A stretch of 60,718 nucleotides of DNA from positions 1-60,718 of the forward strand of contig DATLBA010000004.1 of assembly GCA_035527275.1 (NCBI GenBank), written 5' to 3'. Below the pieces are notes generated by a model. It was not told the origin of the DNA and made no database searches. It saw nothing but the letters and a program-made list of their open reading frames with translations. Source of the stretch: Phycisphaerae bacterium (lineage in GTDB: Bacteria > Planctomycetota > Phycisphaerae > FEN-1346). The position numbers and the translations under genes are program-made. Below are positions 3,358 to 60,718 of the stretch, piece by piece (the stretch's first letter is position 1; each line of letters opens with the position of its first letter).

Positions 3358-3514
3358 TGGACCCGACACGCAGGGGATAATGTGGTCACCCCCCCCTCCC
3401 CCCCGTCCAGGGGCAATTTATCTTGATGATAGCGGTCTTAAATATCCGATAGGTCTGAAGGACGGCAGGGGGGTCCACTCGTGGATGTCGTCCAGTGTGC
3501 TGGGAGGCCCCGGG

Positions 3515-5350
3515 ATGGCATCCCCAATCACCTGTCGGAAGAACGGGCTTCGGCTCCACTGTTTCGTGGCAGGCGCCGTGCCGATGGCGGCCTATCTGCT
3601 CGATTGGGCTTCCCCTGTCTGGATAGTGATGTGCCTTTCGGCGGCGTCGCTGGTTTCGGTTCGCCTCGCCGTGGTTGCCCGCCTTTACGACTTTTTCAAG
3701 ACACCGAAGAATCGCGCGGACGCGGAGTTTCATTACGGTGTCCATCGGTTCAACGAGGCGGTGCGGGTCGGCCTGCTTGGTTTAGGGTTGGGGCTGCTGC
3801 TGACCGGCTATCCCTTCGGTTGGCTTCCGATTTTGGCGGCGTCGGCCACGGCGCTTCTGGAAGCGGCGACGGGGTTTTCCGTGACGGCGCTCATTTACGC
3901 CGGGGCCATAGCGCTGGTGGGTCGCCTGGCGTCGGCCAAGCCGAAGCCCTTTGAACCCACCGCTGGCCGGTTGAACCCCGATTGCCTCATCTGCCGCGCA
4001 CTCGGCCGCGCCCCGTACCAGCGATGCCGGTGGTGCCGCCTGCCAAGTGTCCGGTGGTGCTGCGGTCTCCAGGCGTCCATGCTCCTGATGCTCCTGCTGG
4101 TGATTGCCTTTCTGCTCGACTCTCCCCTGGGGCCGTTCGTGACCAAGGTGCTGGTTGCGATGAGCATCCTGGCGGTGGTGGCGTTGGGTCTGGCGATTAA
4201 TCGGCAGACGGACGACCTGGTTTCAGCGCTGGACGACTCGTTCGAGAAGGGGGAGCGCAAGGCGAGGCGCTGCGCGTTTCTGAAGCGTTTGGCGGCGGCG
4301 CACTCGGTCGAAGCGGCCGCGCAGACGACCGTGGATTACGTCGGCAAAGCGGTGGGGGCGCGGCGAATCAGTGTGATGATTGCCGAGGAAGGGGTGCTTC
4401 GGATTGTGGCCTCGCGGGGACTTCCGCTGCACATCGCCGAGAAGGTCGAGGTGCCGCTCGATAAACGGATTTGTGGCCGCGTGTTTTCGACCGGCCGAGC
4501 CGTTCTGTTCCACGACGTGATGACCGAGATGCCGGCCCTTGCGTTGGGTCTTGAGGGAGCGGGCGCGTCGGCCTCGCTTCCGCTCATCACGGCGCCCATG
4601 GGCGCCAACGGAGACAAAGTCGGTTGTATCAATGTGACCGATAAGCCCGAGCGGGCGTTCTCCGAATCCGACACCGACGAGATGGAGTTTGTCGCGGAGG
4701 CGACGGCCATCAGCCTGGCGGGCCAGTTGGCGCACCGCCAGTTGGAAAAGGCCAACTATGACACGATCCGGGCGCTGGCGCTGGCGATGGAGGCAAAGGA
4801 CCCGTGCACGCACGGCCACTCGCTTCGGGTCCAGGCCTGGTGCGCGGCCATCGGCCGCGAACTCGGCTTCGGAAAGAAACGCCTGCAGGCCCTGTCCTGT
4901 GCCGCCGAGTTGCACGACATCGGCAAACTGGCCATCCCCGATGGGATTCTTCAGGCCGAACGTCCCTTGACCGACGCCGAGTGGGTCCTCATTCGCCAGC
5001 ATCCGTCCCGCGGCGTCCAACTGATCGAACACATCGGCTTTCTGAAATTGACGAAACCCATCATGCTCTACCACCACGAGCGGATCGACGGCGGCGGGTA
5101 TCCGGAGGGCCGCTCGGGCGATGAGATTCCGCTGGAGTCCAGGATTCTGGCCGTCGTGGACTCCTACGATGCGATGACCAGCGCGCGGCCGTATCGGCCC
5201 GCGCTCACGCACGAGGTGGCGGCGGCGGAACTCAGGCGGTGCGGGGGGGCCCAGTTCGATGCCGGTTGTGTCGAGATGTTCCTGGGGCTGCTGAGCAAGG
5301 AAGACGCCGCGTCGGTCCCGATAAACATCGGGGCCGAACGGCAACCGTGA
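3515..5350 (+). CDS. Membrane-anchored GAF + HD-GYP c-di-GMP phosphodiesterase (copy A, intact)
   Basis: N-terminal TM region, CLIC-x10-CRWC cluster, GAF region (RISVMIAEEG..LRIVASRG, VGCINVTDK, FSESD), and HD-GYP motifs GHSLRV, LHDIGK, HHERIDGGGYP, DSYDAMTSARPYR. Confidence 0.9.
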   Translation: MASPITCRKNGLRLHCFVAGAVPMAAYLLDWASPVWIVMCLSAASLVSVRLAVVARLYDFFKTPKNRADAEFHYGVHRFNEAVRVGLLGLGLGLLLTGYPFGWLPILAASATALLEAATGFSVTALIYAGAIALVGRLASAKPKPFEPTAGRLNPDCLICRALGRAPYQRCRWCRLPSVRWCCGLQASMLLMLLLVIAFLLDSPLGPFVTKVLVAMSILAVVALGLAINRQTDDLVSALDDSFEKGERKARRCAFLKRLAAAHSVEAAAQTTVDYVGKAVGARRISVMIAEEGVLRIVASRGLPLHIAEKVEVPLDKRICGRVFSTGRAVLFHDVMTEMPALALGLEGAGASASLPLITAPMGANGDKVGCINVTDKPERAFSESDTDEMEFVAEATAISLAGQLAHRQLEKANYDTIRALALAMEAKDPCTHGHSLRVQAWCAAIGRELGFGKKRLQALSCAAELHDIGKLAIPDGILQAERPLTDAEWVLIRQHPSRGVQLIEHIGFLKLTKPIMLYHHERIDGGGYPEGRSGDEIPLESRILAVVDSYDAMTSARPYRPALTHEVAAAELRRCGGAQFDAGCVEMFLGLLSKEDAASVPINIGAERQP

Positions 5351-6074: not shown

Positions 6075-6367
6075 TTGGCATACCCTTGCCATAGCGGAAC
6101 GCCACGGCGCGCTATGGAGCCCCGTCCTGATATTTGCCTCCCAATCTGAATAGACGCGGAATTGATTTCACGGCTGGCGGGAAAGGGCCGAACTCGGCCT
6201 CGGATGCAGCCGGCGATTGGCGCTCCTGTCGCAGTTATGAGGGCCGTTCCGGCAAGATTTTATGTGATAAAGGTCGGTTTGCCCAGCCGATAATAGGAAT
6301 GCGCTTAAGAGGATGGAGTAACCGCACCTTTTTCGCACGGCCTCCCCCTTGGCTGAGGAGTGCTGGA

Positions 6368-7777
6368 ATGGCGTCCCCGTTCACCTGTCGGAAGAATGGG
6401 CTTCGGCTCCACTGTTTCGTGGCAGGCGCCGTGCCGATGGCGGCCTATCTGGCCGATTGGGCTTCCCCTGTCTGGATAGCGCTGGGCCTTTCGGCGGCGG
6501 CGTTGGTTTCGGTTCGCCTCGCCGTGGTTGCCCGCCTTTACGACTTTTTCAAGACACCGGAGGACCGTGCGGACGCGGAGTTTCATTACGGTGTCCATCG
6601 GTTCAACGAGGCGGTGCGGGTCGGCCTGCTTGGTTTAGGGTTGGGGCTGCTGCTGACCGGCTATCCCTTCGGGTGGCTTCCGATTCTTGGGGCGTCGGCC
6701 ACGGCGCTTCTGGAAGCGGCGACGGGGTTTTCCGTGACGGCGCTCATGTACGCCGGGGCCATCGTGCTGGCGGGCCGCCAGGCGCCGGCCGAGCCGAAGC
6801 CCTTTGAACCCACCGCTGGCCGGTTAAACCCCGATTGCCTCGTCTGCCGCGCACTCGGCCGCGCCCCGTACCAGCGATGCCGGTGGTGCCACCTGCCAGG
6901 TGTCCGGTGGTGCTACGGTCTCCAGGCGTCCATGCTCCTGATGCTCCTGCTGGTGATTGCCTTTCTACTCGACTCGCCCCTGGGGCCGTTCGCAACCAAG
7001 GCGCTGGTTGCGATGAGCATCCTGGCGGTGGTGGCGTTGGGTTTGGCGATTAATCGGCAGACGGACGACCTGGTCTCAGCGCTTGACAACTCGTTCGAGA
7101 AGGGGGAGCGTGAGGAGTGGCGGTGCGCGTTCCTGAAGCGTTTGGCGATGGCGGACTCGGTCGAAGCGGCCGCACAGGTAGCCATCGATTACGCCGGCGA
7201 AGCGGTGGGGGCGCGGCGAATCAGTGTGAGGATTGCCGAGGAAGGGGCGCTTCGGATCCAGGCTTTGTGCGCGGGCATCGGCCGCGAACTCGGCCTCTCA
7301 GAGGAACGCCTGCAGGCCCTCTCCTGTGCCGCCGAGTTGCACGACATCGGCACACTGGCCATTCCCGATAGGATTCTTCGGGCCGAACGCCCCTTGACCG
7401 ACACCGAGTGGGTCCTTGTGCGCCAGCACCCGTTGTGCGGCATCCAACTGATCGAACACATCAGCTTTCTGAAGTTGGCGAAGCCCATCATGCTCCGCCA
7501 CCACGAGCGGATCGACGGCAGCGGGTATCCGGATGGCTGCTCAGGCGATGAGATTCCGCTGGAGTCCAAGATTCTGGCCGTCGTGGACTCCTACAATGCC
7601 ATGACCAGCGCGCGGCCGTATCGGCCGCCACTCACGCACGAGGCGGCGGTGGCGGAACTCAGGCGCTGTGCAGGCACCCAGTTCGATGTCGATTGTGTCG
7701 AGACGTTCCTGGGGCTGCTGAGCAGGGAAGACGCCGAGTCGGCCCCGATAAGTATCGGGGCCGGGGAAGCCTCCTGA
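6368..7777 (+). CDS. HD-GYP paralog (copy B) with an in-frame 426-bp deletion of the GAF domain and start of the HD domain; probably catalytically impaired
   Basis: Collinear with copy A. Length 1410 vs 1836 bp. Junction GCTTCGGAT at 7249-7257. Lacks EAKD..GHS; has HDIGT and DSYNAM variants. Confidence 0.8.
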   Translation: MASPFTCRKNGLRLHCFVAGAVPMAAYLADWASPVWIALGLSAAALVSVRLAVVARLYDFFKTPEDRADAEFHYGVHRFNEAVRVGLLGLGLGLLLTGYPFGWLPILGASATALLEAATGFSVTALMYAGAIVLAGRQAPAEPKPFEPTAGRLNPDCLVCRALGRAPYQRCRWCHLPGVRWCYGLQASMLLMLLLVIAFLLDSPLGPFATKALVAMSILAVVALGLAINRQTDDLVSALDNSFEKGEREEWRCAFLKRLAMADSVEAAAQVAIDYAGEAVGARRISVRIAEEGALRIQALCAGIGRELGLSEERLQALSCAAELHDIGTLAIPDRILRAERPLTDTEWVLVRQHPLCGIQLIEHISFLKLAKPIMLRHHERIDGSGYPDGCSGDEIPLESKILAVVDSYNAMTSARPYRPPLTHEAAVAELRRCAGTQFDVDCVETFLGLLSREDAESAPISIGAGEAS

Positions 7778-7814: not shown

Positions 7815-8294
7815 TCACTGGCCGGAAGGTGACCCGGTCGCAAAGGGTTTCGCTTTTTCTCTCGACAGGATGATATCCGGCGCAACGTAGAACGGCTGCG
7901 CCTTGGTCGGCGTCGGGAGGTTGGTGGTTTTCGGCGCGTAGCCGGGCTTGCCTGCACTGGCATGGATGGCGTGGGCCAATTGCACCACGTCGAAGCCTTC
8001 CCCCAGTTCGAGTTCGTAGGTTCCATCGGTCTTGGTGATGCCGGCGGTTGCCAGGGACCTCGAGCCGAACGCCGTGGAAATTCCGGCCCGAAGCCAGAGG
8101 TGCGCCCGCGGCAGACCCTCGCCGGTTTCGGCGTCCAGCACGCGGCCGCGCAGGCAATACAGTTGGGGCTTCCGCTCCGCTTGCGGCTGGCATCCGGCCG
8201 CGAGGGCGATCAGACAGACGGCCATCAGCCATCGGGCTTGGGCCAGACGGCGAAGGCCGCTGGGAAAACGGACAGTTCGAGTGGATATAGGCAC
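7815..8294 (-). CDS. Lipoprotein with a carboxypeptidase-regulatory-like beta-sandwich domain
   Basis: Lipobox LAAGC, then LRGRVLDAETGEGLP...GITKTDGTYEL. Start is uncertain (GTG 8321, GTG 8294 or ATG 8225). Confidence 0.7.
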   Translation of the reverse strand: MPISTRTVRFPSGLRRLAQARWLMAVCLIALAAGCQPQAERKPQLYCLRGRVLDAETGEGLPRAHLWLRAGISTAFGSRSLATAGITKTDGTYELELGEGFDVVQLAHAIHASAGKPGYAPKTTNLPTPTKAQPFYVAPDIILSREKAKPFATGSPSGQ

Positions 8295-8388
8295 AACCCG
8301 CCCCCGGTCAGGTCTCCCCACGCTATGCCCTGCATGGTACGAACCGAGCGTCTCGGGTCAAGCGAAAAATGCGGCCCACGGCCACGCG

Positions 8389-9990
8389 TCACTCCGCCCG
8401 CCTGGCGCGATATGCTTCGGGCGTTTCGGCAAACTTCCTCTCGACCTTGTACCGGTACTCCGGTCCCGCGTTGTAGGTGCAGAAGGGGTACAAACGGCCG
8501 TCCGGGGCGGCGTAATGGATGACACATCGCCGCGCGCGGTCCGTCTGGTAATTGTAGCGGTCCTGAAAGTGCATGCCAGCGACCATGAGGCTGCGGAAGG
8601 TCTTCTTGCCGACCTTGCCGCGGCCGACCTTCTTATCGACCATGCCGTTCAGCGTGTGGAGCCACCCGTCGAAGGTCATACCGGCCGGGGCGTGCTCGGG
8701 CCGAAAATGCCGCTTCAGCGCGAGGAAGGATCGGGCCTTTGTGAAAAGTTTGAAGCGGCTCCGCTCACCCTTCCGGGCCAGCCGCCACATCTCGTCGAGC
8801 AATCCCCTCAAGTCGAAAAACTGCGGAATCGGGACCGGCCGCCCGTCCGTGCCAACGAAAAGATAAGTTCCCAGCGAACAGTGCGGGTGACAGGACATGA
8901 TGAGGTTCGCTTCGCCGCGCACCGCCGCCACCAGCCGCGCAAACGGCTGGACGCACGACAGGGGGAACCAGTCCTCGTAGGGGTCGCCGATGCCGGTCTG
9001 ACGGGCCACGTCGTGCGCCAGGTCCGTCAGCGTGTACCGGCGGCGGAGGCGCTCGCGTGCGTCGATACGACCGGTGAACACGACGGGCTGGAAGGAGATG
9101 CCCGCGATCGTCTCGATCCGCTCGAGGGCATACCGCACGATGTCGCCGACCTGATGGTCGTTCACGCCGCGGACGATGGTGGGCACGAGGACGATCTTCA
9201 TGTCGGTGTCGGCGATGCGCTCGATGCACCGTTCCTTCTCCCGCCTGAGCGGCCGGCCGCGGGTCTTTTCCCACACCTCGTCCGTTGTGCCGTCGAACTG
9301 AAGATAGATGTCGTGGAGCCCCGCTTCGGCGCAGCGCTTGGCGAAGTCGGGCTCGCGGGCGAACCTGAGGCCGTTCGTCGCAATCTGTATGTGCGAGAAC
9401 CCCGCGTCGCGTGCCGCGCGTAAACAGTCCAGAAAGCGGGGATGGAGGGTCGGTTCGCCGCCCGAGAACTGGATCGCCCGCGCCGGCGACGGCCGCATCG
9501 CCCGGTATGTCCGCAGCATCCCGACGACCTGCTCGAGCGTCGGCTCATAGACGTAACCGGAGGCGCCCGAGTTCGCAAAGCAGATGGGGCACGCCAGGTC
9601 GCAGCGGTTCGTCAGGTCGATGTTCCCGAGAGCGGTGTTCGACGCGTGGTCCGGACACAGGCCGCATTGGAACGGGCACCGGCTGGTGGCCTCCGCGTTG
9701 GGGTTTTCGAGGCCGTCGCCGTCGGCGTAGTGAAATTCTTCGGCCTTCAGGTAAAGCCGCGCGTCGCCCCAGATAATGTCCTCGAACGGGCCGTGCTCCG
9801 GGCAGGTTTTCTCCATCCAGACCTGGCCGCCCTTTTCGGAAAGCGTGGCGGGAATCAGGCGCATGCACTCGGGACAGACCGACTCGGTTTGTTTCGGCAA
9901 GCCGCGCTTCAAGGGAGGGATGCGGCGGCCGGTCAGCGTGCGTTTCGCTTCATTGGTTTCCGAGAGGTCTTCGCCGATAGCCGGATTCAT
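8389..9990 (-). CDS. tes: Radical SAM protein, tetraether lipid synthase (Tes/GDGT-MAS, MJ0619)-like
   Basis: SVCPEC..EKTCPEHG, CPFQCGLCPDH, IDLTNRCDLACPICFAN, IQFSGGEPT, HIQIATNG, CHPHC, MHFQDRYNYQTDRARRCVIHYAAPDGRLYPFCTYN. SD GAGGAAGG precedes ATG 9990. Confidence 0.85.
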   Translation of the reverse strand: MNPAIGEDLSETNEAKRTLTGRRIPPLKRGLPKQTESVCPECMRLIPATLSEKGGQVWMEKTCPEHGPFEDIIWGDARLYLKAEEFHYADGDGLENPNAEATSRCPFQCGLCPDHASNTALGNIDLTNRCDLACPICFANSGASGYVYEPTLEQVVGMLRTYRAMRPSPARAIQFSGGEPTLHPRFLDCLRAARDAGFSHIQIATNGLRFAREPDFAKRCAEAGLHDIYLQFDGTTDEVWEKTRGRPLRREKERCIERIADTDMKIVLVPTIVRGVNDHQVGDIVRYALERIETIAGISFQPVVFTGRIDARERLRRRYTLTDLAHDVARQTGIGDPYEDWFPLSCVQPFARLVAAVRGEANLIMSCHPHCSLGTYLFVGTDGRPVPIPQFFDLRGLLDEMWRLARKGERSRFKLFTKARSFLALKRHFRPEHAPAGMTFDGWLHTLNGMVDKKVGRGKVGKKTFRSLMVAGMHFQDRYNYQTDRARRCVIHYAAPDGRLYPFCTYNAGPEYRYKVERKFAETPEAYRARRAE

Positions 9991-10081
9991 AAGCCTTCCT
10001 CTTGGAGTTGCCCCATTATAGCGCTCGAACCGGCGACATGCCACCCTATTTATCGAGCACTAGGTATGACAACCGCCCTCA

Positions 10082-10849
10082 CTAGCCGCCGGGAATCAAC
10101 TTCACGACGAGGTTGAAAACAACATGGACGCCCGAGGCGATGCCGAACCCCCGCGTCGCAAACAGCACGGCGAGATAGACTCCCGCCGCCGTGCGGAAGA
10201 GGAACGTCGGCCACGTGAACAACTGGGGGTCGCCCAGCGTGTGGGCTCCCGCGAACAGCCCCGCCGCCACCAACACGCCCGCCACGACCGCGCCGCGGCG
10301 CTCAAGACGGAAGACGTGCTGCATGAGGAACACCAGCCCGCCAATGAGCGCCAAGCGGAAAATGAGTTCCTCGTAGATGCCGGCGCCGATGCTGGTCATG
10401 GCGGCGGCCAGCAGGCCGGAAGGCGCGTCCTCCGCCAACTCCAGCGCGCTTGGCGGGGCCGCCGACTGGAACACCCGCTGAAGCGCCACAAGCGGGACCG
10501 TCAGCATCATCGTCTCCAGCACCATCGCGGGAAGGAGGGCCAGACGGAATCGCCACGGGTCCTTGCGCGCAAGGTGCCAGGCCAATAGCGCGCCGACGAC
10601 GAGGCCGGCCGGCGCGAGCACGCCCGCCAGACCCACAAGCGCGAGCGCGCGGCGAAGCAGGAGGTCCACGCCGGCCGCCAAATCAGGACGCACCCACACC
10701 AGGCCCGCCGTGTAAAAGACCAGGAAGGGTGACAGAAAGACGAGACTCGGCCACGGCCGCGCCGCTTCCGGTGCGAAAAGAAGCCGGCCGTCGTGGCTCC
10801 GGCGACGCGCGGCGGCCGGGCGTCTTCGGGGATGCACCGATCTCACCAT
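10082..10849 (-). CDS. CPBP (CAAX prenyl protease-like/Abi) intramembrane glutamic protease
   Basis: GIYEELIFR (EExxxR), FAGAH (FxxxH) and HVVFN motifs; multi-TM. Start is uncertain. Confidence 0.85.
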   Translation of the reverse strand: MVRSVHPRRRPAAARRRSHDGRLLFAPEAARPWPSLVFLSPFLVFYTAGLVWVRPDLAAGVDLLLRRALALVGLAGVLAPAGLVVGALLAWHLARKDPWRFRLALLPAMVLETMMLTVPLVALQRVFQSAAPPSALELAEDAPSGLLAAAMTSIGAGIYEELIFRLALIGGLVFLMQHVFRLERRGAVVAGVLVAAGLFAGAHTLGDPQLFTWPTFLFRTAAGVYLAVLFATRGFGIASGVHVVFNLVVKLIPGG

Positions 10850-15429: not shown

Positions 15430-16308
15430 ATGGCCATGCTCGTTCGCGAACCGATTGTGGCCGGCCAGTTCTATCCGGCCGGCCGCGACGCCTGCGTTGA
15501 AATGATCGAGTCGCTCCGCCCAGGGAAACTACCCGAAGACCTGCCCGATCGTCCTGTGGCCGGCGTTGTGCCTCACGCCGGCTGGGTCTTCTCCGGCGCG
15601 ACGGCGCTGGCCGTGCTTGAGGCGATCCGGCAAGGCCGAACTCCGAAAACGTTCGTCCTCTTCGGGGCGGTCCACGGGCCGATTCGCGCAAGCGCCGTCT
15701 TCAGTTCAGGCGGGTGGCGGACGCCGCTCGGCCTGGCCGAGGTGGACGAGCGCCTCGCCGGCGAGGTCCTCGCACGGAGCGAGGGACTTGTGGCCGACGC
15801 GCCGCACGCCCACGAGGCGGAACACAGCATCGAGGTCCAGGTGCCGTTCATCCAGTACCTCTTTCCTGAAGCGCGAATCCTTCCGATTGCCGTCCTGCCG
15901 GACGAGCACGCCACCGAAATCGGCCGCATCGTCGGCCGGACTGTCGGCAGCCTGGACGCCGACGCCGTCTGCCTCGGCTCGACGGACCTGACGCATTACG
16001 GCCCGGCGTACGGGTTCACGCCGAAGGGTCTGGGCGAGGAGGCGCTTCGGTGGATGCGCGAAGAAAACGACCGCCGCATGGTGGACCTGATGCTGCGGCT
16101 CGACGCCGAGGCCGCGGTGCCGGAAGCCGAGACCCGCGCCAACGCCTGCGGCGCGGGCGCCGTTGCGGCCACCCTGGCTGCCGCGCGCGAACTTGGCGCT
16201 TCCTGTGGCCGCCTCGTCCACTACACCACGTCGTGCGACGTGATGCGCGAACGGATGGGCTCTCAAGGGATGGACGCCGCCGTCGGCTATGCCGGCGTCG
16301 TCTTTTAA
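15430..16308 (+). CDS. MEMO1-family protein (AmmeMemoRadiSam protein B)
   Basis: VAGQFYP, VPHAGWVFSG, EHSIEVQVPFIQ, STDLTHYG, CGAGAV, VGYAG. Confidence 0.9.
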   Translation: MAMLVREPIVAGQFYPAGRDACVEMIESLRPGKLPEDLPDRPVAGVVPHAGWVFSGATALAVLEAIRQGRTPKTFVLFGAVHGPIRASAVFSSGGWRTPLGLAEVDERLAGEVLARSEGLVADAPHAHEAEHSIEVQVPFIQYLFPEARILPIAVLPDEHATEIGRIVGRTVGSLDADAVCLGSTDLTHYGPAYGFTPKGLGEEALRWMREENDRRMVDLMLRLDAEAAVPEAETRANACGAGAVAATLAAARELGASCGRLVHYTTSCDVMRERMGSQGMDAAVGYAGVVF

Positions 16309-16936: not shown

Positions 16937-18058
16937 ATGGCAACCGCCAAAGACGACAGCGCGTGCGGCGTGCTGGAACTGCACGAGCGGGGCTACGGAT
17001 TCTTGCGGGATCCCAAACGTGATTTCCGCCCCACCCAAAACGACGTTTTCGTCCCACCGGGGCTGGTCAAGCAATATGGCCTGAAAGAGGGCCTCGCGCT
17101 CGAAGGCCCGACCCGCCCGGACAGAAAGGGGCGCGGCCTGCAACTGGCCGACGTGACGACCATTTGCGGACAACCGCCGGACCTCTACGCCCCGCTTGCG
17201 TCATTCGGGCGGCTCACCGTCATCGATCCCGACGAAGCCCTCTGGCTCGAAACAGGGCCGGAGCCGCTCACCACCCGCGTCCTGGACCTCCTCGCGCCGA
17301 TCGGCAAAGGCCAGCGGGGCCTCATCGTCTCGCCGCCGCGCGCCGGGAAGACCATCCTCCTCGAACACATGGCGCAGGCCGTCCATACCAACTACCCGGA
17401 CGTGTGCCTCATGATGGTTCTGGTGGACGAGCGGCCGGAGGAGGTCACGCACTTCCGCCGGACGACCGGTGGCTTGGTCCTGGCATCCTCGAACGATCAG
17501 GATGTCGAGCAGCACGTGAGACTTGCGCGCCTGGCGTTCGCCCAGGCCAAGGCCGAAGTCGAGTTCGGCCGCGACGTCGTCCTCTTCATGGACAGCCTCA
17601 CGCGCCTCGGCCGCACGTTCAACAAAGCCGTCCCGTCCAGCGGCCGCACGATGTCCGGCGGCATGGACATCCGGGCCCTGGAGGAACCCAAGCGCATGTT
17701 CGGCGCTGCCCGCAACATCGAAGGCGGAGGGAGCCTGACCGTCGTCGCCACCTGCCTCATCGAAACCGGCAGCCGCATGGACGAACTCATCTTCCAGGAA
17801 TTCAAAGGCACGGGCAATATGGAGTGCGTCCTCGCGCGCGACCTGGCCGAGCGTCGGCTCTTCCCGGCGGTTGACATCCTCGCCTCCGGCACGCGCAAGG
17901 AAGAACGCTTCGTCAGCCCCGAGGAACTAAGGAAGCGCCATCTGATTCGCCGCCGCCTCGCCGACACCAAGCCCCACGAAGCCCTCGAGAGCCTGCTCTC
18001 GGCGCTTGCGTCCTATCCTTCGAATCGCGACCTGCTGGACGCGCTCTCGGCCGCCTAA
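16937..18058 (+). CDS. rho: Transcription termination factor Rho (short form)
   Basis: GVLELHERGYGFLR (RNA-binding OB fold), GKGQRGLIVSPPRAGKT, DERPEEV, DSLTRL, IFQEFKGTGNME, SGTRKEE. Confidence 0.93.
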   Translation: MATAKDDSACGVLELHERGYGFLRDPKRDFRPTQNDVFVPPGLVKQYGLKEGLALEGPTRPDRKGRGLQLADVTTICGQPPDLYAPLASFGRLTVIDPDEALWLETGPEPLTTRVLDLLAPIGKGQRGLIVSPPRAGKTILLEHMAQAVHTNYPDVCLMMVLVDERPEEVTHFRRTTGGLVLASSNDQDVEQHVRLARLAFAQAKAEVEFGRDVVLFMDSLTRLGRTFNKAVPSSGRTMSGGMDIRALEEPKRMFGAARNIEGGGSLTVVATCLIETGSRMDELIFQEFKGTGNMECVLARDLAERRLFPAVDILASGTRKEERFVSPEELRKRHLIRRRLADTKPHEALESLLSALASYPSNRDLLDALSAA

Positions 18059-19188
18059 TGGTCCAACTCCATGACGCGCTTGCGGTAATGCCTGTAGTTG
18101 GACAGTGAAACGTCGGAGGGCACGGCGTGGTCGCAACTGGGGATGTAACGGCCGCGATCGACCATCGTCGGAACGATATATTCCAGCATCCGGTCGATGG
18201 CGTCGGGCCCCTTGGCCAGGACCCGCTTGTCGATACCCCCGCGCATGTGCATGTCGGGATAGCGCCGGCCGATCTCGACGACGTCGCACCCGCTCGCGAC
18301 TTCGAACGGACTCATCGCATCCACGTCCACCTCGCGGTACACGTCGATGACGGGGCGGCAGTCGCCGTCCGTGTCGATCTCGAAGTGAAGCGTCTCGGTC
18401 TGACCACCTTTCAGTTCCTCATATAGTTCGCGATAGCAGGGCAGCAGAAACTCGCGCATCATCTTCGGCGAGATCAGCGGCCCGTGGTTGTAGCAGATGT
18501 CCTCGGCCAGGAACAATCTGAAAAACGGCCCCGTGTCTGTCTGACACCGCTTCAGGCCGAACACCGCGAGGTCGCGCCACGTCTCCATGAGCGAACGGAC
18601 CAGGTCCGGCGCATCGTAGAAGGCGTACAGCAGGTCCTCCGGCCCGATCAGGCTCCGAAGGTACATATACCCGCCGATGACGCTGGCCGTGTGCAGGCAC
18701 TCGCCGCGCCCGAGCCGCGCCCGGTTCCGCTCCACCTTCTCCTCGTAGCCTTCCCACCGCGCGGGCGTCTCGGGATCGAGCCGCGGCCGCACGTCGTTCT
18801 CCCAGTCCTTCCGCGACGCCACCGCGTGCTTCAGATACGTCGGCATGACCTGTTCCCGCTGGCCTTTGGGATAGCGTTTGACGCGGCCCACCCAGTCCCG
18901 AACGATTTCGTGCCGGCCCTCGACTTTGAGCACTTTCTCCTCATATCGCGGCTCCAGCGGCGCTTCGCACCAGCCGAGGTCCACGGCCTGCCCCATCCAA
19001 ACGCCCGGGTCGAACCCGAAGTATTCGTTGAACCGGGAACCCGCCTTGCCGTCCTTGACCACGTCCGGGGGGATGCCCTCGCGCTCCCACCGCGCGAAGG
19101 TCTGGGGAAAGAAACCGAACGGGGTGCGCACGAGGTGGTCCACCGGTCCGCCCTCAAAACTTCGCCGCATTCTCTCGACTGGACCCAT
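18055..19188 (-). CDS. URO-D/MtaA-CmuA family protein
   Basis: FLAEDICYNHGPLISP, IDTDGD, MSPFEVASG, RGGIDK, YIPSCDH. Start ATG 19188. Confidence 0.85.
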   Translation of the reverse strand: MGPVERMRRSFEGGPVDHLVRTPFGFFPQTFARWEREGIPPDVVKDGKAGSRFNEYFGFDPGVWMGQAVDLGWCEAPLEPRYEEKVLKVEGRHEIVRDWVGRVKRYPKGQREQVMPTYLKHAVASRKDWENDVRPRLDPETPARWEGYEEKVERNRARLGRGECLHTASVIGGYMYLRSLIGPEDLLYAFYDAPDLVRSLMETWRDLAVFGLKRCQTDTGPFFRLFLAEDICYNHGPLISPKMMREFLLPCYRELYEELKGGQTETLHFEIDTDGDCRPVIDVYREVDVDAMSPFEVASGCDVVEIGRRYPDMHMRGGIDKRVLAKGPDAIDRMLEYIVPTMVDRGRYIPSCDHAVPSDVSLSNYRHYRKRVMELDH

Positions 19189-19364
19189 CGCGTGCCCTCC
19201 CAACAAAAATACGCGGCCAGGGTGCCCATCGGCCCTCCAGCCGCCGTCAAGATATCGTTGACTACGCCCTAGTCCCCAACAGAAAGAACCTGACGCCTGC
19301 TAACTCAGTTCGGCGCGGAAGGCGCAGCACGCTCGTCAGTCTTACCGAACGGTAGAAGCCCAGA

Positions 19365-20717
19365 CTACTGGGCCTTGCGGAGCATGGCGGCCTTTTCCAA
19401 ATCTGCCGACCCTTCCGCCACCCATTCCTCATCCGCCAGTTCGCCCCACCGGCAGGCGTAACGGTCCAGCCCGTCGGCCGCCTTCGTCAGAATCGCTTCG
19501 CCCCCCTCATACGTCGGCCGCGCGCCCGACTCCCGCACCACCTCCCGCAGGACGTGCGGGTGATCGATAATCATGCACGGCCGCAGATAGTCGTCCGAAT
19601 AGGGCTGCCGGGCGCGGATGCGGCGGAAGAACGGGCTGTCCAGAACGTCATGAAGCGACTTGTCCCGGATGTTATCCACCGCGAACTGGGCGAAAACGCA
19701 CGGCTCGACATCGCCATGCACGTTGATATGAATATAGTATCGCCCGCCCGCCATGCAACCGCCGACCAAGGCCCCGTCGTTCCAGAAATCCATCAGAAGC
19801 ATCGGCAGCCGTTCCCTGAGTTCCCGCACCCGCCTCCGCCGACACAGGCGCTGCTCCGGCGTCGGCATCCGGTCAAGGTCAGGCTCGCGCCCGATGGGAA
19901 TGTAATTGAAGTACCACCCCAGGGCGCACCCCTGCTCCCGCCAGAACTCCACAAACTCGTCGCTAACGAGGAGATCGTTGTTCTCCCGCGTCGCCGTCGC
20001 ACTGAAGCCGAAGAAGACGCCGCGCTCACGCAGGTTCCTCATCGCCGCCAGGATCCGGTCGAACGTCCCTTTCCCGCGGCGAGCGTCGGTCTCCTCCTTG
20101 AACCCCTCGACGCTGATGCAGGGCACCACGTGCCCCATCTCCGCCAACCGGTCCGCCAACGAAGAGTCAATCAGCATCCCATTCGTGTACACCTGAAAGT
20201 AAACGTCGTCGTGGGTCGCGAAAAGATCCATTAGGTCTTTGCGAAAGAACGGCTCCCCGCCGCTTATCGTGATAAAATAAATGCCCATCGCCTTCGCTTC
20301 CCGCAAAATCCGGTCCACCAGGCCGAAGGACATCTCCGCGCGCTTCGCATACGCGGCGGCATAGCACCCCACGCACCGCAGGTTGCACCGCATCGTCGGG
20401 CTGATAACGAGGGAGTATGGCGGCTGAAGACCCGTCCGGTGATGATACTGAATCCGCTGCCGCTTGCCCGTGATGGCGTTCACCATCAGGTTGTCGAGCA
20501 CCTTGGTCCGGCATTGCGGGCACCCTTTGGCGAGGATCTCCTTGCCGAATCGGAGCATCTGATTCGTAAAAATCCGCCCCTGCGGGAAGGTAATCGACTG
20601 GGCCGCTTCTTGGGCAAAGGCAAACAAACGCCTCTCAAACCACTGCGGCGCCACCCGCACCGCACCCCGAAGCGCCTGCAATTGAACGTATCCCACGGCC
20701 GACGTGAGTGGATTCAC
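19365..20717 (-). CDS. Radical SAM protein with a SPASM/twitch-like C-terminus
   Basis: ISPTMRCNLRCVGCY, SGGEPF, YTNG, GCMAGGRYYIHINVHGDVEPCVF, LRPCMIID. Confidence 0.88.
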   Translation of the reverse strand: MNPLTSAVGYVQLQALRGAVRVAPQWFERRLFAFAQEAAQSITFPQGRIFTNQMLRFGKEILAKGCPQCRTKVLDNLMVNAITGKRQRIQYHHRTGLQPPYSLVISPTMRCNLRCVGCYAAAYAKRAEMSFGLVDRILREAKAMGIYFITISGGEPFFRKDLMDLFATHDDVYFQVYTNGMLIDSSLADRLAEMGHVVPCISVEGFKEETDARRGKGTFDRILAAMRNLRERGVFFGFSATATRENNDLLVSDEFVEFWREQGCALGWYFNYIPIGREPDLDRMPTPEQRLCRRRRVRELRERLPMLLMDFWNDGALVGGCMAGGRYYIHINVHGDVEPCVFAQFAVDNIRDKSLHDVLDSPFFRRIRARQPYSDDYLRPCMIIDHPHVLREVVRESGARPTYEGGEAILTKAADGLDRYACRWGELADEEWVAEGSADLEKAAMLRKAQ

Positions 20718-35096: not shown

Positions 35097-36116
35097 TCAG
35101 AACGGGGGCTCGGCTTCCTGGTCCCCTGCTACGGCGCCGGCGCCCTGGTAATCGTCCGTGGGCACAGAGGTGAGGGCCTCGCGCGGGGAGGCGGGCGTAA
35201 AGCGCGTGTATTTCCACAGCCAGGTCAGCGGAATTCTTCCGACCGGGCCGTTTCGTTGTTTGGCGATGATGAGGTCGGCCTTTCCTTTCACCTTTTCGTA
35301 GGTTTCGGAGCCCTGCGGGTGGCGCATTTCCTCGCGGTGGAGAATCAGGACGACGTCGGCGTCCTCCTCAAGGGTGCCTGAGTCCCTGAGATCCGCGAGT
35401 CTCGGGCGCATAGATTCTTCGATGGGACGGCGCAATTGTGCAACAGCAATGATTGGGACGGCAAGTGACCTCGCAAGGGACTTCAGGCAGTGACTTATGC
35501 GGCTCATTTTGTAGTAAGGCGTCTCATCGCTTGCGGGCTCCAGCAGATGCACGTAATCAATGACTATAAGATTTGCTTGTCCGCTTTCTACCATGTGTCG
35601 GCATTTTTCGATCAACTGCTCCAGCGAGAGGGCGGGCGTGTCGTCGATGTAGAGAGGCGCCTCAAAGAGCTGCAACGCCGCCAGCTGAACCTTCTGGACC
35701 TCGGCGTTTGAGAGGGTCCCTTTGCGCAGCCGCTGGCCGTCCACGCTTGCGCGCGACGACAGGAGCCGCAGGGCGAGAGCCTCGCGGCTCATTTCGATGC
35801 TGAAGAAGGCGACGGGCTTTTTGAGGTCCACGGCGATGTGCTCGGCGATGTTCAGGACCAGCGCGCTTTTGCCGAAGCTCGGCCGGGACGCCAGGACGAT
35901 CATCTCGCCCGCCTGGAGCCCGCGCGTCATGTCGTCCAGTTCGTAGAACCCGGTTTCGAGCCCCGTGACCGCCCGTCCACCCTGCAAGTCGAGGTCCTGC
36001 AGGATATGACTACAGACAACCTTGATTGTGACAGCCTCTGCGGGTTGGTCGCCTAAGCGAGAAAACCAGTTCTTCTGTTGCTGGGAGTCCGCAGAGGAAA
36101 TGGATGATTCAGGCAT
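35097..36116 (-). CDS. DnaB helicase C-terminal-domain-only paralog (mosaic)
   Basis: SD AAGGGAG precedes ATG 36116. Walker A SRPSFGKS, FSIEMS, IVIDY, QLRR, LRDSGTLEEDAD, KQRNG. No DnaB N-terminal domain. Two blocks are near-identical to the neighbouring dnaB. Confidence 0.85.
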   Translation of the reverse strand: MPESSISSADSQQQKNWFSRLGDQPAEAVTIKVVCSHILQDLDLQGGRAVTGLETGFYELDDMTRGLQAGEMIVLASRPSFGKSALVLNIAEHIAVDLKKPVAFFSIEMSREALALRLLSSRASVDGQRLRKGTLSNAEVQKVQLAALQLFEAPLYIDDTPALSLEQLIEKCRHMVESGQANLIVIDYVHLLEPASDETPYYKMSRISHCLKSLARSLAVPIIAVAQLRRPIEESMRPRLADLRDSGTLEEDADVVLILHREEMRHPQGSETYEKVKGKADLIIAKQRNGPVGRIPLTWLWKYTRFTPASPREALTSVPTDDYQGAGAVAGDQEAEPPF

Positions 36117-36149
36117 TGTATTCTCCCTTGGCATCAATAACGAATTTCC

Positions 36150-37577
36150 TTAAAATGGAATCTCCTCCTTGTCGCCCTCCGCTTCGCCTGCCACGGCGCC
36201 GGCGCCCTGGTAATCGTCCGTGGGCGCCGGGGTGAGGGCCTCGCGCGGGGAGGCGGGCTTGAAGCGCGTGTATGACCACTGCCAAGTCAGCGGAATGGTT
36301 CCGACGGGGCCGTTTCGCTGTTTTTCGATGATGAGGTCGGCCTTGCCTTTTTCCTGCGTGTAATTATCGCTCTTCGGGTCCATGTACATGGACGCACGAT
36401 GAAGGAGCATGACGACGTCGGCGTCCTGCTCGATGGCACCGGATTCGCGGAGGTCGCTCAATCGCGGTCGGCTGCGTTCCTCGCTTTCGCGCCGGAGTTG
36501 GGAGACGGCCAGGACCGGCACGTTCAGTTCGCGCGCCAGCGACTTGAGGCCCCGGCTGATGCCGGCCACTTCGACCTGGCGGTTCTCTTCGCGCCGGCCG
36601 CTGGTCATCAGTTGAAGGTAATCGACGATGATGAGTTTGATGTCGTGGCGGGCCAGCAGCCGCCGCGCCTTCGCCCGGAGACCAATGATGCGCAGGCCCG
36701 GCGTGTCGTCGATGTAGAGCGGCGCCTGGTAGAGGACGTTCGCCGCCTGCTGAACCTTCTGGACCTCGGCGTTTGAGAGGATGCCTTTGCGCAGCCGCTG
36801 GCCATCCACTTGCGCGCGTGAGGACAGGAGCCTGAGGGCGAGGGCCTCGCGGCTCATTTCGATGCTGAAGAAGGCGACGGGCTTTTCGAGGTCCACGGCG
36901 ATGTGCTCGGCGATGTTCAGGACCAGCGCGCTTTTGCCGACGCTCGGCCGGGACGCCAGGACGATCATCTCGCCCGCCTGGAGCCCGCGCATCATGTCGT
37001 CCAGTTCGTAGAACCCGGTTTCGAGCCCCGTGACGGCGCGGCCGCCCTGAAGGTCCAGCGCCTTCATCACCTGGCTGAGGATGGCGCGCACGTCCACCGC
37101 CTGCCCCACAATCTGGCGCTCGGTGACCTCGAAGATTCGTTTCTCGCACCGGTCGAGCACGTCATCAACCGAGTCGCCGGAGGCGTGCGCGTCGCGGATG
37201 ATTTCGCCCGCCGCCTGAATCAGCCCCCGCAAAAGCGCCTTGTCCTTGACCACGCGGGCGTAGTATTCGGCGTTGGCGGCCGAGGCGACGCTGTTATAGA
37301 CGTCCACGATGTATTCCCGGCCTCCGATCTCCTCCAGTTTGCCGGCATCGCGGAGGGCCTGCTCCAGCAGCACGCCGTCAAGCGGCTTATTCTCCTCGAA
37401 ACTTTTCTTCAGGAACTGGAAGATCGTGCGATGTTCCTGCCGGAAGAAGCAATCCTCATCGACCAATTCAAGACACAGCCCGAGCGCCTCGGGATTCATC
37501 ATCATGGAGCCCAGCGCAGCCATTTCGGCCTCAAGGCTGTGAGGGGGGACCTTGTCGAGTAACGTGTCGTCCGGCAT
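36150..37577 (-). CDS. dnaB: Replicative DNA helicase
   Basis: PPHSLEAE, SRPSVGKS, IVDYLQL, LRESGAIEQDAD, KQRNGP. Follows rplI. Confidence 0.96.
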   Translation of the reverse strand: MPDDTLLDKVPPHSLEAEMAALGSMMMNPEALGLCLELVDEDCFFRQEHRTIFQFLKKSFEENKPLDGVLLEQALRDAGKLEEIGGREYIVDVYNSVASAANAEYYARVVKDKALLRGLIQAAGEIIRDAHASGDSVDDVLDRCEKRIFEVTERQIVGQAVDVRAILSQVMKALDLQGGRAVTGLETGFYELDDMMRGLQAGEMIVLASRPSVGKSALVLNIAEHIAVDLEKPVAFFSIEMSREALALRLLSSRAQVDGQRLRKGILSNAEVQKVQQAANVLYQAPLYIDDTPGLRIIGLRAKARRLLARHDIKLIIVDYLQLMTSGRREENRQVEVAGISRGLKSLARELNVPVLAVSQLRRESEERSRPRLSDLRESGAIEQDADVVMLLHRASMYMDPKSDNYTQEKGKADLIIEKQRNGPVGTIPLTWQWSYTRFKPASPREALTPAPTDDYQGAGAVAGEAEGDKEEIPF

Positions 37578-37637
37578 CGCACACCCGGTTGCCAATAGCC
37601 GACGCGAAGGTGCCTCGCGGTTCGGCCATGGAGACTG

Positions 37638-57190: not shown

Positions 57191-59485
57191 TCAAACGGAA
57201 ATGAGGTCAAGCGTCCGCCTGGCGAACGCCCGGAGGGTACTGTCGTCGATAGGGGCCTTCTCTGCCTGCCCGGGGTTAGTGTCGTGGTGATATTCCTTCG
57301 AGAAAGTGTTAATGTCCTCAAGTTCCTGGAGATGCTCTTTCCAGCCAGCTAGTTTGTCGCCAGGGCGCGCGCCCCGGATTTTCTTGATGAAATCGCCCAG
57401 CCACTCATTTGCTTTGAACTTAGGGGGGAAACGCATGCGCAGGTTCGCCTCGAGGAGTGGCCGTATGCGCCGGGCAGTGCTACGGAGATCGTCCTGTGTT
57501 CCCTCCTCCAAGTATTTAGAAAGGGCGAAGTAGTTCTGGAAGTAATGGCTTTGCGTTGCTTGCTCGATATCCCACAGTCCGAGGTTGCTGTTGTTGACTC
57601 CCTCCCTGAATATCCAAAGTGTCTTCGTCCGCGATTTATCCGACTCCCCCCAAAACTGTTGGAGAAAATATGGGTCGTGGGACATTACCACTACTTGGTT
57701 GACGCGCGAAAGAACGCGTAGAACTTCGCACCTCGTCTGGGCTTTTCGCTGACGGTCCAGGCTGCATATCGGGTCGTCGAAAACCACAATCTTACCGGCC
57801 GCGTCCGGCTCTTTTTCGAGCCGCGCGAGGAAGAAAGCGAAGGCCAACGTGCCCTTGTCTCCGGCGCTCAGCGTGTTTCTGAAAGACGGCGTTCCATCCC
57901 AGCTGTTGGGGTCGCCCAGCTCGATGGACTCGCCGTTGATTTTGAGGCAGTAATTTGAACTGGCGCGGCCCCCAGCATAACTGCCCTGCATCTTGCAAAT
58001 GCGGAAATCTGCGCCGAAGCGATCCAGTAGCGCGTTGATCTCTCCCTCGTAGCCCGGAAGCATCTTCTGAGTGAGTGCGCGAAGTTCTTCTTCCTTCCGC
58101 TGTTTCTCGGTCTGAAGCGACTTCCAGTCGGCCATGACGCGGCGATAATTAGTGCAGAGAGTATCAAGATGTGGGTTATACCGGACCTTGATGTTTTCAA
58201 GGCGCGCAAGGCGATTCTTCTCTTCCGCGAGGTTGCCTGACGCAGTCCGCTGCTTTTCGGCTTCGATGAGTCCGTTTACCTTCCGAACGTGCCCGTTGTA
58301 GTCCCCAATCAGACCGCATACCCGCCAATATTCGGCCTTGGCGTTTGTGAAAGCCTCGGCCACCTCGACCACTTCCAAAGGAGTCTGTGCCTTTTGGGAA
58401 AGGTGTGCGCGAACCTGTGGTCCTAATTCGTCGCACGCGTCTTGAATCCCTTCGAAATCAAGCGTCGGGAAGTAGGATGCTATCTTTAGACCGCCCCAAA
58501 AACGTGCCAACTCCTTGTTGTTTTGAACGGTTTTCCCAATTTTCCGTAGGGCGAACTCAGAAAGCTGTTCTGAAAGGGTTTTCTGCGCTCTTTTAATCTC
58601 CTCTTTGAAATCCTGATATGACTCCCTGAAGTAATCGCGATAGGCAGAGACTAGCTCGTTCCCTTTGACGGATTGCCCACAGAACGGGCATGCCTCGTCC
58701 TTGACGTAGTGCAGCCCTTTGCTCAGCCATGCCTCCCCATCTCGATCCATACATTGCTGCACCTGCTGCTTCACTCGTTCTTCGGCGTCTCTCGCTACGT
58801 CCTCAAGCGTCTTGCGTAGAAGTTTCTCGGTAGGGCCGGTAGGATCTTCCGGAGCAGGGAGTTCAGAAAGTGCGGGTTTTGAGCTTATTTCGCTGGCTTT
58901 TTCCAGACGCGCCACTTTCTGTTTTTGCGCGGCTATCTTGCGCTCGATTTGGTTATCAGGAGAGAGGCCGATGAACGTGTCGGCCCTCATGTCGCCAAGA
59001 ATTCTGTCCTTAATCTGCTCCTCCAAGCGTCGGCCTTCTTTCCTCTTTTCTCGGCTTTCTCGGTCGATCGCCTCGATTCTCCGGGCAATCTGCACGCCCC
59101 TTTCGCCAATGGCGAAGGTGCACAGGTTCTTCTTGTGCTCGTGATGGACATGGCGTCCAGAATAGACATTGTTCTCAATGAAATCAGAATCAAATATGGC
59201 TAGCTGGGGCAGCGTCGCGCTCCAGGTTCCATTTTTATAGGTCGCATTGCCAAACCCCAACCGGATGTACGCTTCGGGCGGCCCTGCCTGGCCGAGCGTA
59301 CGGCGTTCCTCAATGTACTTGCTTTCGCCCGTCTTCAGGGAGCGCAGGATAGCCGAAAGGGTTGTCTTACCCCTACCATTTTCGGAGTAGACAAGGGTCA
59401 GCTTCCGGAGTTCCACATCCCCTGCCGGGGTACAGTCGGCAAGCCGCCCAATGTTCTTCACCTTGATGATCTTCTTTATCATCAT
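57191..59485 (-). CDS. RloC-like (AAA_13) ABC/SMC-type ATPase with a C-terminal HEPN-like domain
   Basis: Walker A YSENGRGKT, coiled coils with zinc hook CPFCG, signature LSAGDK, Walker B/D-loop VVFDDPICSLD, H-loop SHD, C-terminal RPLLEANL...NTFSKEYHH. AT-richer than the flanks. Confidence 0.8.
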   Translation of the reverse strand: MMIKKIIKVKNIGRLADCTPAGDVELRKLTLVYSENGRGKTTLSAILRSLKTGESKYIEERRTLGQAGPPEAYIRLGFGNATYKNGTWSATLPQLAIFDSDFIENNVYSGRHVHHEHKKNLCTFAIGERGVQIARRIEAIDRESREKRKEGRRLEEQIKDRILGDMRADTFIGLSPDNQIERKIAAQKQKVARLEKASEISSKPALSELPAPEDPTGPTEKLLRKTLEDVARDAEERVKQQVQQCMDRDGEAWLSKGLHYVKDEACPFCGQSVKGNELVSAYRDYFRESYQDFKEEIKRAQKTLSEQLSEFALRKIGKTVQNNKELARFWGGLKIASYFPTLDFEGIQDACDELGPQVRAHLSQKAQTPLEVVEVAEAFTNAKAEYWRVCGLIGDYNGHVRKVNGLIEAEKQRTASGNLAEEKNRLARLENIKVRYNPHLDTLCTNYRRVMADWKSLQTEKQRKEEELRALTQKMLPGYEGEINALLDRFGADFRICKMQGSYAGGRASSNYCLKINGESIELGDPNSWDGTPSFRNTLSAGDKGTLAFAFFLARLEKEPDAAGKIVVFDDPICSLDRQRKAQTRCEVLRVLSRVNQVVVMSHDPYFLQQFWGESDKSRTKTLWIFREGVNNSNLGLWDIEQATQSHYFQNYFALSKYLEEGTQDDLRSTARRIRPLLEANLRMRFPPKFKANEWLGDFIKKIRGARPGDKLAGWKEHLQELEDINTFSKEYHHDTNPGQAEKAPIDDSTLRAFARRTLDLISV

Positions 59486-60018
59486 CCACCTCCTCTTCTC
59501 CCGCTCAGGGCGCGTAGGCGAGCGGGTAAAGGACCTTCGGCAGATGGCTCCGCTCCTAGGGACATCCGTATCGCATTATATAGGTAAGGATACAGGGGAC
59601 CGGCGTTGAATTCAAGTGAAATAAGCGTGAGCTGCCACGTTGGGTGAGATACAGCCTGACGCGTGGTCCGCTTCCGAACCCACCGGCCGAGTCGCTGCCG
59701 TTACCCAATCCGCGCCGTTCTCTACGGTCTCGGCGGTCTTCGCGGTTACAGACTACCGATCCTCGCGGTCCCAGTCGCAAGGGATTTCGTCCGTGCGGGC
59801 GGGGAGGTGATATTCGCCCGGCCCCATCACGATAGCGGCGCGCCGGGACGACGCCGGGTTGCCGTCCGCCCTTAAATCCGCAATCCGACTTCTCCATGTT
59901 CCTTCGTAGGAGCCCTTCGGGCCGCAATCACTCTCTCCCCCTGCCCGGCGAATTCGGTTGACACGGCCTTCGGCCAGAGTAGCATCAACCTCACGAACAC
60001 GGAAATGTTTATTGCAAC

Positions 60019-60046
60019 TTGACAGGCGGCCGATATGGTGTATAAT
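60019..60046 (+). promoter_or_regulatory. Consensus sigma70 promoter upstream of the NYN gene
   Basis: TTGACA-N16-TATAAT. Confidence 0.8.
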
Positions 60047-60098
60047 AACAAAGGATTACCACCCCGTCGGCTCTCAGAGCAGGCGGGTCTATGACCTC

Positions 60099-60129: not shown

Positions 60130-60130
60130 C

Positions 60131-60658: not shown

Positions 60659-60718
60659 CGCCGCTGCAGCCTTGCCTTGTGGATTTCGGGGGACTCCATT
60701 CTGCTTTCGGTTTTCCGA

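Follow-up and report, generated by a model that had tools for sequence, protein, structure and literature searches.

A Tes-family radical SAM gene of Phycisphaerae belongs to a clade that stands apart from the ger/gms gene cassette

Introduction

Does a Phycisphaerae bacterium that carries an intact relative of the archaeal tetraether lipid synthase use it to make membrane-spanning lipids and, if so, from which lipid precursors? The question is raised by a gene in a 60,718-nucleotide stretch of contig DATLBA010000004.1 (GenBank assembly GCA_035527275.1), here called the window and analyzed as a whole. An earlier note, made from the sequence alone, had recognized in this gene a bacterial counterpart of Tes/GDGT-MAS (MJ0619 of M. 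jannaschii) and had suggested that its host makes membrane-spanning lipids. The brGDGTs underlie widely used paleotemperature and pH proxies, and their producers beyond a few Acidobacteria are unknown, notably in anoxic waters and sediments rich in Phycisphaerae. A Tes that is functional in Phycisphaerae would, if true, add one more source group of these lipids.

The earlier note overrated the novelty of such a gene. A set of 456 bacterial Tes homologs was described in 2022, together with a proposed role in brGDGT synthesis (Zeng et al.; PMC8941075), and a pathway model running from PlsAR through Tes to Grs has been put forward by Halamka et al. (PMC10087280). A Black Sea study of 2025 detected Tes homologs in 110 of 684 Planctomycetota MAGs, found Tes and GrsA homologs specifically in Phycisphaerae, and stressed that their function is unconfirmed (PMC11868695). 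In sediments of the East China Sea, brGDGTs correlate with the abundance of Phycisphaerae (PMC12383918). The Phycisphaerae Tes homologs and the brGDGT hypothesis were thus already published between 2022 and 2025, and the gene in the window is a further, good candidate.

Among bacteria, Mss is the only membrane-spanning lipid synthase to have been confirmed by experiment (Sahonero-Canavesi et al.; PMC13159169). According to the same work, most producers of iso-diabolic acid lack Tes homologs: these are missing from the tested producers of DA and iso-DA outside the Acidobacteria and occur in only 3 of 14 iso-DA-producing acidobacterial genomes. As relayed by another publication (PMC13023045), S. 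usitatus has Tes homologs and brGDGTs, and K. versatilis has a Tes homolog only and tetraesters; the correlation relayed there is that tetraesters are made by an acidobacterium that has Tes and lacks Ger, and brGDGTs by one that has both. A 2026 review reports no test of a bacterial Tes homolog (PMC13459092), and a search of the literature found neither a genetic or biochemical test of one nor lipid data for the organisms of the clade described below.

Results

An intact gene with a complete set of cofactor sites

The tes homolog is intact, and its product comprises four domains: a rubredoxin-like zinc ribbon, an N-terminal [4Fe-4S] domain, a radical SAM core, and a C-terminal [4Fe-4S]/lipid-pocket domain. 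The coordinates of the gene, its flanking signals, and its neighbors are given in Table 1. A longer open reading frame of 551 aa, starting at an upstream in-frame GTG (10044), was set aside because close homologs are about 533 aa long, a Shine-Dalgarno-like GAGGAAGG lies immediately 5' of the ATG, and the ATG is also the start in the public gene calls for identical contigs. The promoter match in Table 1 comes from a consensus scan that returned 3 sites, compared with 0.2 expected in shuffled sequences, and is a consensus match only; terminator-like hairpins such as the one that abuts the stop codon are not enriched over shuffles. The scans suggest a promoter of its own for tes, and the hairpin suggests that the gene may be monocistronic.

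Table 1. Coordinates of the tes homolog and of adjacent features in the window
Feature	Coordinates	Strand	Description
tes homolog	8389..9990	-	Intact gene, 533 aa from ATG 9990; N-terminus MNPAIG
Sigma-70-like promoter match	10015..10044	-	GTGGCA-18-TATAAT, 10/12; between the start of tes and the upstream CPBP gene
Terminator-like element (GC hairpin, then T-run)	8371..8385	-	Abuts the tes stop codon; consensus match only
Rce1-like/CPBP intramembrane protease gene	10082..10849	-	Pfam PF02517; directly upstream of tes, same strand
Small predicted lipoprotein gene	7815..8321	-	LAAGC lipobox; 136 aa in the public gene call; lies downstream of tes

The metal ligands and contact residues published for MJ0619 (PMC9433317) were mapped by alignment onto the window protein. 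All of the motifs listed in the earlier note are present, and each falls on crystallographic ligands of MJ0619. The SVCPEC and KTCPEH motifs supply C39, C42, C63, and H66 of the rubredoxin-like Fe site (CX2C...CX2H). CPFQCGLCPDH supplies C105, C109, C112, and H115, which align with C73, C77, C80, and H83 of MJ0619, the CX3CX2CX2H site of the N-terminal [4Fe-4S] cluster, and CDLACPIC supplies the CX3CX2C of the radical SAM cluster (C130, C134, and C137). Within CHPHC, only the second cysteine, C371 (C338 in MJ0619), corresponds to a ligand; it belongs to the C-terminal [4Fe-4S] cluster, along with C489, C504, and the labile M473 (M439 in MJ0619). The RCVIHY...PFC segment contributes C489 and C504 as well as Y493, the equivalent of Tyr459, which is strictly conserved across 1000 archaeal homologs (PMC9433317). 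In total, 15 of the 15 metal ligands of MJ0619 are kept. The residues in contact with 5'-dA, Met, or structural water are kept as well (F138, G178, Y229, D233, R244, V269, T271, Q301, T306, and R308), the sole change being Val304 in place of Ser271, a backbone contact in MJ0619. The cofactor and SAM sites of the window protein are, as judged from this alignment, intact.

Assignment to the Tes family

The full set of metal ligands that the earlier note had emphasized does not by itself identify a Tes. TrsS and other relatives carry an identical ligand pattern, so these motifs mark the wider superfamily rather than Tes specifically, and the ligand set was rejected as proof of Tes identity. The resemblance to TrsS extends to the zinc ribbon/rubredoxin and N-terminal cluster domains, the radical SAM core, and the Cys/Met ligand positions of the C-terminal part. 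However, TrsS proteins are shorter (about 440 to 480 aa, with a model architecture of about 441 aa), and their C-terminal domain is both shorter and divergent. In a family comparison of 128 representatives, a clade of such ~440- to 480-aa proteins possesses the Cys, His, and Met positions of Tes but mostly Val at the position of Tyr459. Of four members of this clade that were scored against the TrsS model, three pass, and the fourth falls just below the cutoff of 490, at 454.6 bits. Tyr versus Val at the Tyr459 position tells Tes from most TrsS.

Membership of the window protein in Tes follows from its complete C-terminal domain, Tyr493, and its position in the tree, in agreement with the identification made in the earlier note. 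The protein scores 545.7 bits (E = 8.7e-164) against NCBIfam NF045702, the curated equivalog for the tetraether lipid synthase Tes, with a cutoff of 450; its score against the TrsS model NF045646 is 355.5 bits, under the cutoff of 490, and that match is limited to residues 52 to 353, the N-terminal two-thirds. Pfam domains PF23545 (HMPTM/Tes zinc ribbon; E = 1.9e-21) and PF04055 (radical SAM core) were also detected. In a PDB search, the sole strong match was the GDGT-MAS structure 7TOL/7TOM (E = 9.3e-126 for 7TOL), spanning residues 46 to 545 of the 551-aa translation, that is, 28 to 527 in the 533-aa numbering. The alignment with the M. jannaschii enzyme runs from end to end, with 41% identity over ~490 residues. 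In neighbor-joining (distance-based) trees, in which MJ0619 is the one characterized sequence, the window protein groups with MJ0619, Thermoplasmata Tes, and bacterial Tes, and this group is split from TrsS and its relatives in 98 of 100 bootstraps. The gene in the window, which is intact, is a bacterial representative of the Tes/GDGT-MAS radical SAM family.

An AlphaFold2 model built with 41 homologs (pLDDT 86.5; pTM 0.89) most closely matched 7TOM and 7TOL in a Foldseek search (TM-score 0.84 by query and 0.89 to 0.90 by target; rmsd 2.5 A; ~504 columns), and the next match was MoaA, with a TM-score of 0.34. The predicted structure thus matches, at the level of fold, the four-domain arrangement of 7TOL, down to the lipid-pocket domain at the C-terminus. 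In sequence, the helices of the second lipid pocket (residues 388 to 455, the amphipathic-helix region) are only 15% identical to those of MJ0619. The same region is 38 to 46% identical to other bacterial homologs, and it shows two changes specific to the clade of the window protein, L398 and L425, where others carry Phe.

Relatives and host

Homologs of the window protein form 623 clusters at 50% identity (E <= 1e-30) and are widespread among Planctomycetota MAGs (GTDB species representatives). Nine loci with 73 to 97% identity (L001 to L008 and L084) form with the window protein a clade that is recovered in 100 of 100 bootstraps and sits on a long branch. Beyond this clade, the window protein is 46 to 50% identical to the main Planctomycetota Tes clade; 49 to 57% identical to homologs from Acidobacteriota, Myxococcota, and Desulfobacterota; and 45 to 47% identical to the archaeal Thermoplasmata Tes. 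The Acidobacteriota proteins (of the type found in "Ca. Solibacter usitatus" and "Ca. Koribacter versatilis") and the main Planctomycetota Tes (46 to 57% identity taken together) belong to the same NCBIfam equivalog as the window protein and share its hypothesized role in the synthesis of iso-diabolic-type membrane-spanning lipids and brGDGTs (PMC8941075, PMC10087280).

The planctomycete-like host proposed in the earlier note was borne out. Identical or near-identical proteins, as well as the Rho protein of the window, occur in NCBI MAGs named Phycisphaerae bacterium, where the Tes-family proteins are annotated only as "radical SAM protein." Among the matches listed (80 loci, with 72 matches beyond them), no second Tes locus was found in 8 genomes of the clade. 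The composition of tes is native (GC 0.65; GC3 0.83) and uniform around the gene; the uniform composition gives no sign of recent transfer, and recent horizontal transfer was set aside because no compositional anomaly was found.

A clade without the cassette neighbors

The genomic context of tes was compared across 80 loci, which are those of the matches listed, with 72 further matches beyond. Within this sample, a Gms-like radical SAM/SPASM gene encoding ~500 aa lies directly 3' of tes in 42 of the 80 loci, in line with the clustering of tes and gms that has already been described (PMC11214058). Directly 5' of tes, a DUF2229-like open reading frame of ~440 aa is found in 37 of the 80 listed loci, or in 43 when scored by similarity to the copy in locus L018. 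A protein of ~1070 aa, with two BcrAD_BadFG activase domains and DUF2229, is encoded near tes in 11 of the 80; this combination of domains is the "BBD" core of Ger/PlsA (PMC13159169). At the level of the family, the predicted functions of these neighbors tie bacterial Tes to ether and membrane-spanning lipid metabolism.

The clade of the window protein differs from most Planctomycetota homologs in that tes is flanked by neither Ger/PlsA-like, DUF2229-like, nor Gms-like genes but lies in a housekeeping neighborhood behind the CPBP gene. The gene order of the clade is fumC, (Memo), CDP-alcohol phosphatidyltransferase, GGDEF regulator, EndoIII-like, CPBP/Rce1-like protease, tes, small lipoprotein, and URO-D-like. 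No Gms-like radical SAM/SPASM gene adjoins tes in the window, in L001 to L008, or in L084, and no Ger/PlsA, ElbD-like, or Grs genes were found within 10 kb in ten related loci. What is modestly new here is the separation of this clade from the ger/gms cassette.

The partner genes that the earlier note had in mind (Ger, Mss, and Grs) likewise did not turn up: Pfam scans of the open reading frames and tblastn with the Ger-like protein of L018 detected no Ger/PlsA, Mss, Grs (B12-dependent radical SAM), or Gms in the 60.7-kb window. The archaeal lipid genes for G1P dehydrogenase, GGGP/DGGGP synthase, and geranylgeranyl reductase were also not detected by Pfam scans of the window open reading frames. 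The window does encode a PlsC-type acyltransferase and PgsA-type genes, which are predicted to serve bacterial-type phospholipids, and its remaining genes are housekeeping genes. With neither cassette neighbors in the clade nor Ger, Mss, Grs, or archaeal lipid genes in the window, the product could be either ether or ester linked. The window's only other radical SAM/SPASM gene (positions 19365 to 20717) was considered as a Gms or Mss partner and was not counted as part of a lipid system: its product shares only 26% identity with the Gms-like protein of the cassette, a value that Tes itself roughly equals, and it matches no curated family above cutoff.

Discussion

The window protein is probably a catalytically competent Tes/GDGT-MAS-family radical SAM enzyme of a Phycisphaerae host that couples the tails of bacterial glycerolipids; we infer activity, substrate, and product by analogy with the archaeal enzyme. 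Most likely, it would use SAM to join the tails of bacterial glycerolipids end to end through a C-C bond, yielding membrane-spanning lipids. Because none of the cofactor sites is impaired, chemistry of the MJ0619 type is the expectation with the best support. Under the mechanism borrowed from the M. jannaschii enzyme, SAM would be cleaved at the CX3CX2C [4Fe-4S] cluster, and the resulting 5'-deoxyadenosyl radical would take a hydrogen from a glycerolipid tail, at its terminal carbon, while the tail lies in a hydrophobic tunnel. The substrate radical would then be stored on the C-terminal [4Fe-4S] cluster (Cys371, Cys489, Cys504, and the labile Met473) in the form of a C-S bond, until another tail, activated by a second SAM, attacks the stored carbon to form the tail-to-tail C-C bond, at a cost of two SAM per bond. 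Electrons would presumably be relayed by the rubredoxin-like Fe at the surface and the N-terminal cluster. The same type of reaction, radical SAM tail-to-tail C-C coupling of glycerolipids, is proposed for Mss of Thermotoga and Thermoanaerobacter (PMC13159169, PMC13459092), although Mss and Tes are no more than distant relatives (PMC13159169).

Homology is no guide to the substrate, given the low identity of the pocket helices to MJ0619. The window protein shares with MJ0619 (PDB 7TOL and 7TOM) the four domains, the ligands of the rubredoxin-like Fe and of the three [4Fe-4S] clusters, the labile Met, Tyr459, and the SAM/5'-dA contacts; it differs in its bacterial host, the pocket helices, Val304 for Ser271, a 30-residue disordered N-terminal extension and, probably, a substrate that is not of the archaeol type. 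MJ0619 itself binds diacyl phosphatidic acid of E. coli, although non-specifically (PMC9433317), and this binding, together with the bacterial-type lipid genes of the window, favors the coupling of bacterial acyl or alkyl chains. The substrates would most likely be the usual glycerolipids of bacteria, whose chains are methyl-branched (iso) or straight, and the product would then be a membrane-spanning lipid of the iso-diabolic acid type. Whether its linkage is of the ether (brGDGT) or ester kind would be set by an enzyme of the Ger/PlsA/ElbD type, should one be encoded elsewhere.

Other readings of the same evidence have to be weighed. The window enzyme could be the organism's own brGDGT (tetraether) synthase, coupling iso-C15 dialkyl glycerol diethers from a Ger/PlsAR-type reductase encoded elsewhere, which is the strong form of the idea in the earlier note. 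The S. usitatus pathway model, from PlsAR via Tes to Grs (PMC10087280), the Phycisphaerae MAGs reported to contain Tes, GrsA, Ger, and Mss homologs (PMC11868695), and the sister-clade Planctomycetota whose Tes genes adjoin Ger/PlsA-like genes all point in this direction. Nevertheless, the 60-kb window and the 10-kb flanks in ten related loci lack Ger/PlsA, ElbD-like, and Grs genes, and a Tes homolog unaccompanied by Ger goes together with tetraesters only (Chen et al. 2025, as relayed by PMC13023045), which makes this reading unlikely. Production of an archaeal-type isoprenoid GDGT or macrocyclic archaeol, by a bacterium that also possesses an archaeal-like ether lipid pathway, would fit the overall identity to MJ0619 with its identical active-site inventory, Tyr459 included, the Thermoplasmata Tes, which is about as close to the window protein as the main Planctomycetota clade, and the "archaeal-like lipids with rings" raised for Phycisphaerae (PMC11868695). 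It is, however, highly improbable: the archaeal lipid genes are absent from the Pfam scans of the window while PlsC and PgsA-type genes are present, the protein is nested among bacterial homologs outside the archaeal group, the composition of the gene is native, and isoprenoid GDGTs are known from no bacterium (PMC8941075).

The protein might also be a Tes-like paralog with another substrate, that is, an enzyme with a TrsS-like function, a "pterin methylase" (HMPTM) as in the older annotation, or a catalyst of some other C-C or C-S bond reaction on a non-membrane molecule. The ligand set common to the whole superfamily would permit this, as would the long branch, the genomic isolation, and the clade-specific L398, L425, and V304; moreover, JGI calls some homologs 7,8-dihydro-6-hydroxymethylpterin dimethyltransferase. 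We give such a paralog only a slim chance, since the TrsS score falls below its cutoff while the Tes model passes, the C-terminal domain is full length with Met473 and Tyr493, the split from TrsS-like clades is well supported, and the pterin-methylase assignment of MJ0619 has been dismissed on structural grounds (PMC9433317). Coupling of bacterial glycerolipid tails by a Tes-family enzyme is therefore the reading that we favor. A more specific proposal, doubtful at present, is that Planctomycetota possess two functionally distinct Tes lineages: one, encoded in the cassette with Ger/PlsA-like and Gms-like genes, would make ether-linked bridged tetraethers, and the other, stand-alone and monocistronic behind the CPBP protease, would convert diacyl phospholipids to tetraester (iso)diabolic-type lipids or, given the changes in the pocket helices, to a product not yet described.

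Because the stand-alone clade lacks linked ether-forming genes, a functional Tes there would help settle whether coupling takes place on ester or ether lipids; the window locus is no better a test of this question than the published Planctomycetota and Acidobacteriota homologs. The CPBP protease gene is found upstream of tes in L001 to L006, L008, and L081 to L085 as well. This synteny was not accepted as functional linkage, since its conservation is confined to one closely related clade and common descent accounts for it equally well. Finally, some members of the clade retain the gene of the small predicted lipoprotein on the other side of tes; its product falls into no known family, and the gene is probably transcribed from its own promoter.

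Tes family assignment and the SAM-gating loop

Representatives of the TrsS clade (P0205 to P0270), a related radical SAM family, have all the metal-ligand positions in common with Tes at the family level, and therefore the two families cannot be separated by ligand motifs alone. They differ in the C-terminal domain, which is shorter in TrsS, and at the position of Tyr459 in MJ0619, the crystallized Tes of Methanocaldococcus jannaschii, which is occupied by Val in most of the TrsS clade. In the window Tes, Val304 (codon at 9079-9081) matches MJ0619 Ser271, in the SAM-gating loop; it is the sole Val at this position among the window protein and 80 aligned homologs, the others having Ser, Ala, or Cys. 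The effect of this change is probably small because the contact at Ser271 goes through the backbone.

Gene neighborhoods of tes

For most of the other Tes homologs in Planctomycetota, the gene lies in a cassette in which a Ger/PlsA-like "BBD" protein (two BcrAD_BadFG domains plus DUF2229) is followed by a DUF2229-like ORF of ∼440 aa, Tes, and a Gms-like rSAM/SPASM protein of ∼500 aa. None of these three partners was found in the Tes neighborhood within the window's clade (the window, L001 to L008, and L084), throughout which the URO-D/MtaA-like gene near tes is syntenic. Five members of this clade (L002, L004, and L006 to L008) are TPA MAG records labeled "uncultured Anaerolineales bacterium"; the same syntenic locus in NCBI MAGs is labeled Phycisphaerae or Planctomycetota, so that the labels conflict.

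Features of the window and an example of the Tes cassette
Feature	Location	Strand
URO-D/MtaA-like gene near tes	571-1713	+
Two paralogous HD-GYP proteins, DUF4395 membrane N-termini	3380-5350; 6134-7777	+
Memo (AmmeMemoRadiSam system protein B)	15430-16308	+
450-aa radical SAM/SPASM gene, then another URO-D/MtaA-like gene	18055-20717	-
Two adjacent DnaB-like genes	35097-37595	-
764-aa AAA_13 ATPase and NYN-domain protein	within 57191-60718	
Tes cassette (also L017, L019, L028, L037, L043, L051, and others)	L018:5108-13551	

Other genes of the window

The 450-aa radical SAM/SPASM gene matched none of the curated families searched above the cutoff, and the Memo gene is adjoined by neither AMMECR1 nor a radical SAM partner. 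L082, one of the public contigs, carries a tes gene identical to that of the window but is missing the second HD-GYP copy, and this copy-number difference indicates strain-level variation. One DnaB-like protein is full length (481 aa; DnaB and DnaB_C), and the other (346 aa) contains DnaB_C only. Finally, GC content falls to 0.56 at the 3' end of the window, where the region encoding the ATPase and the NYN-domain protein may be a defense or mobile island.
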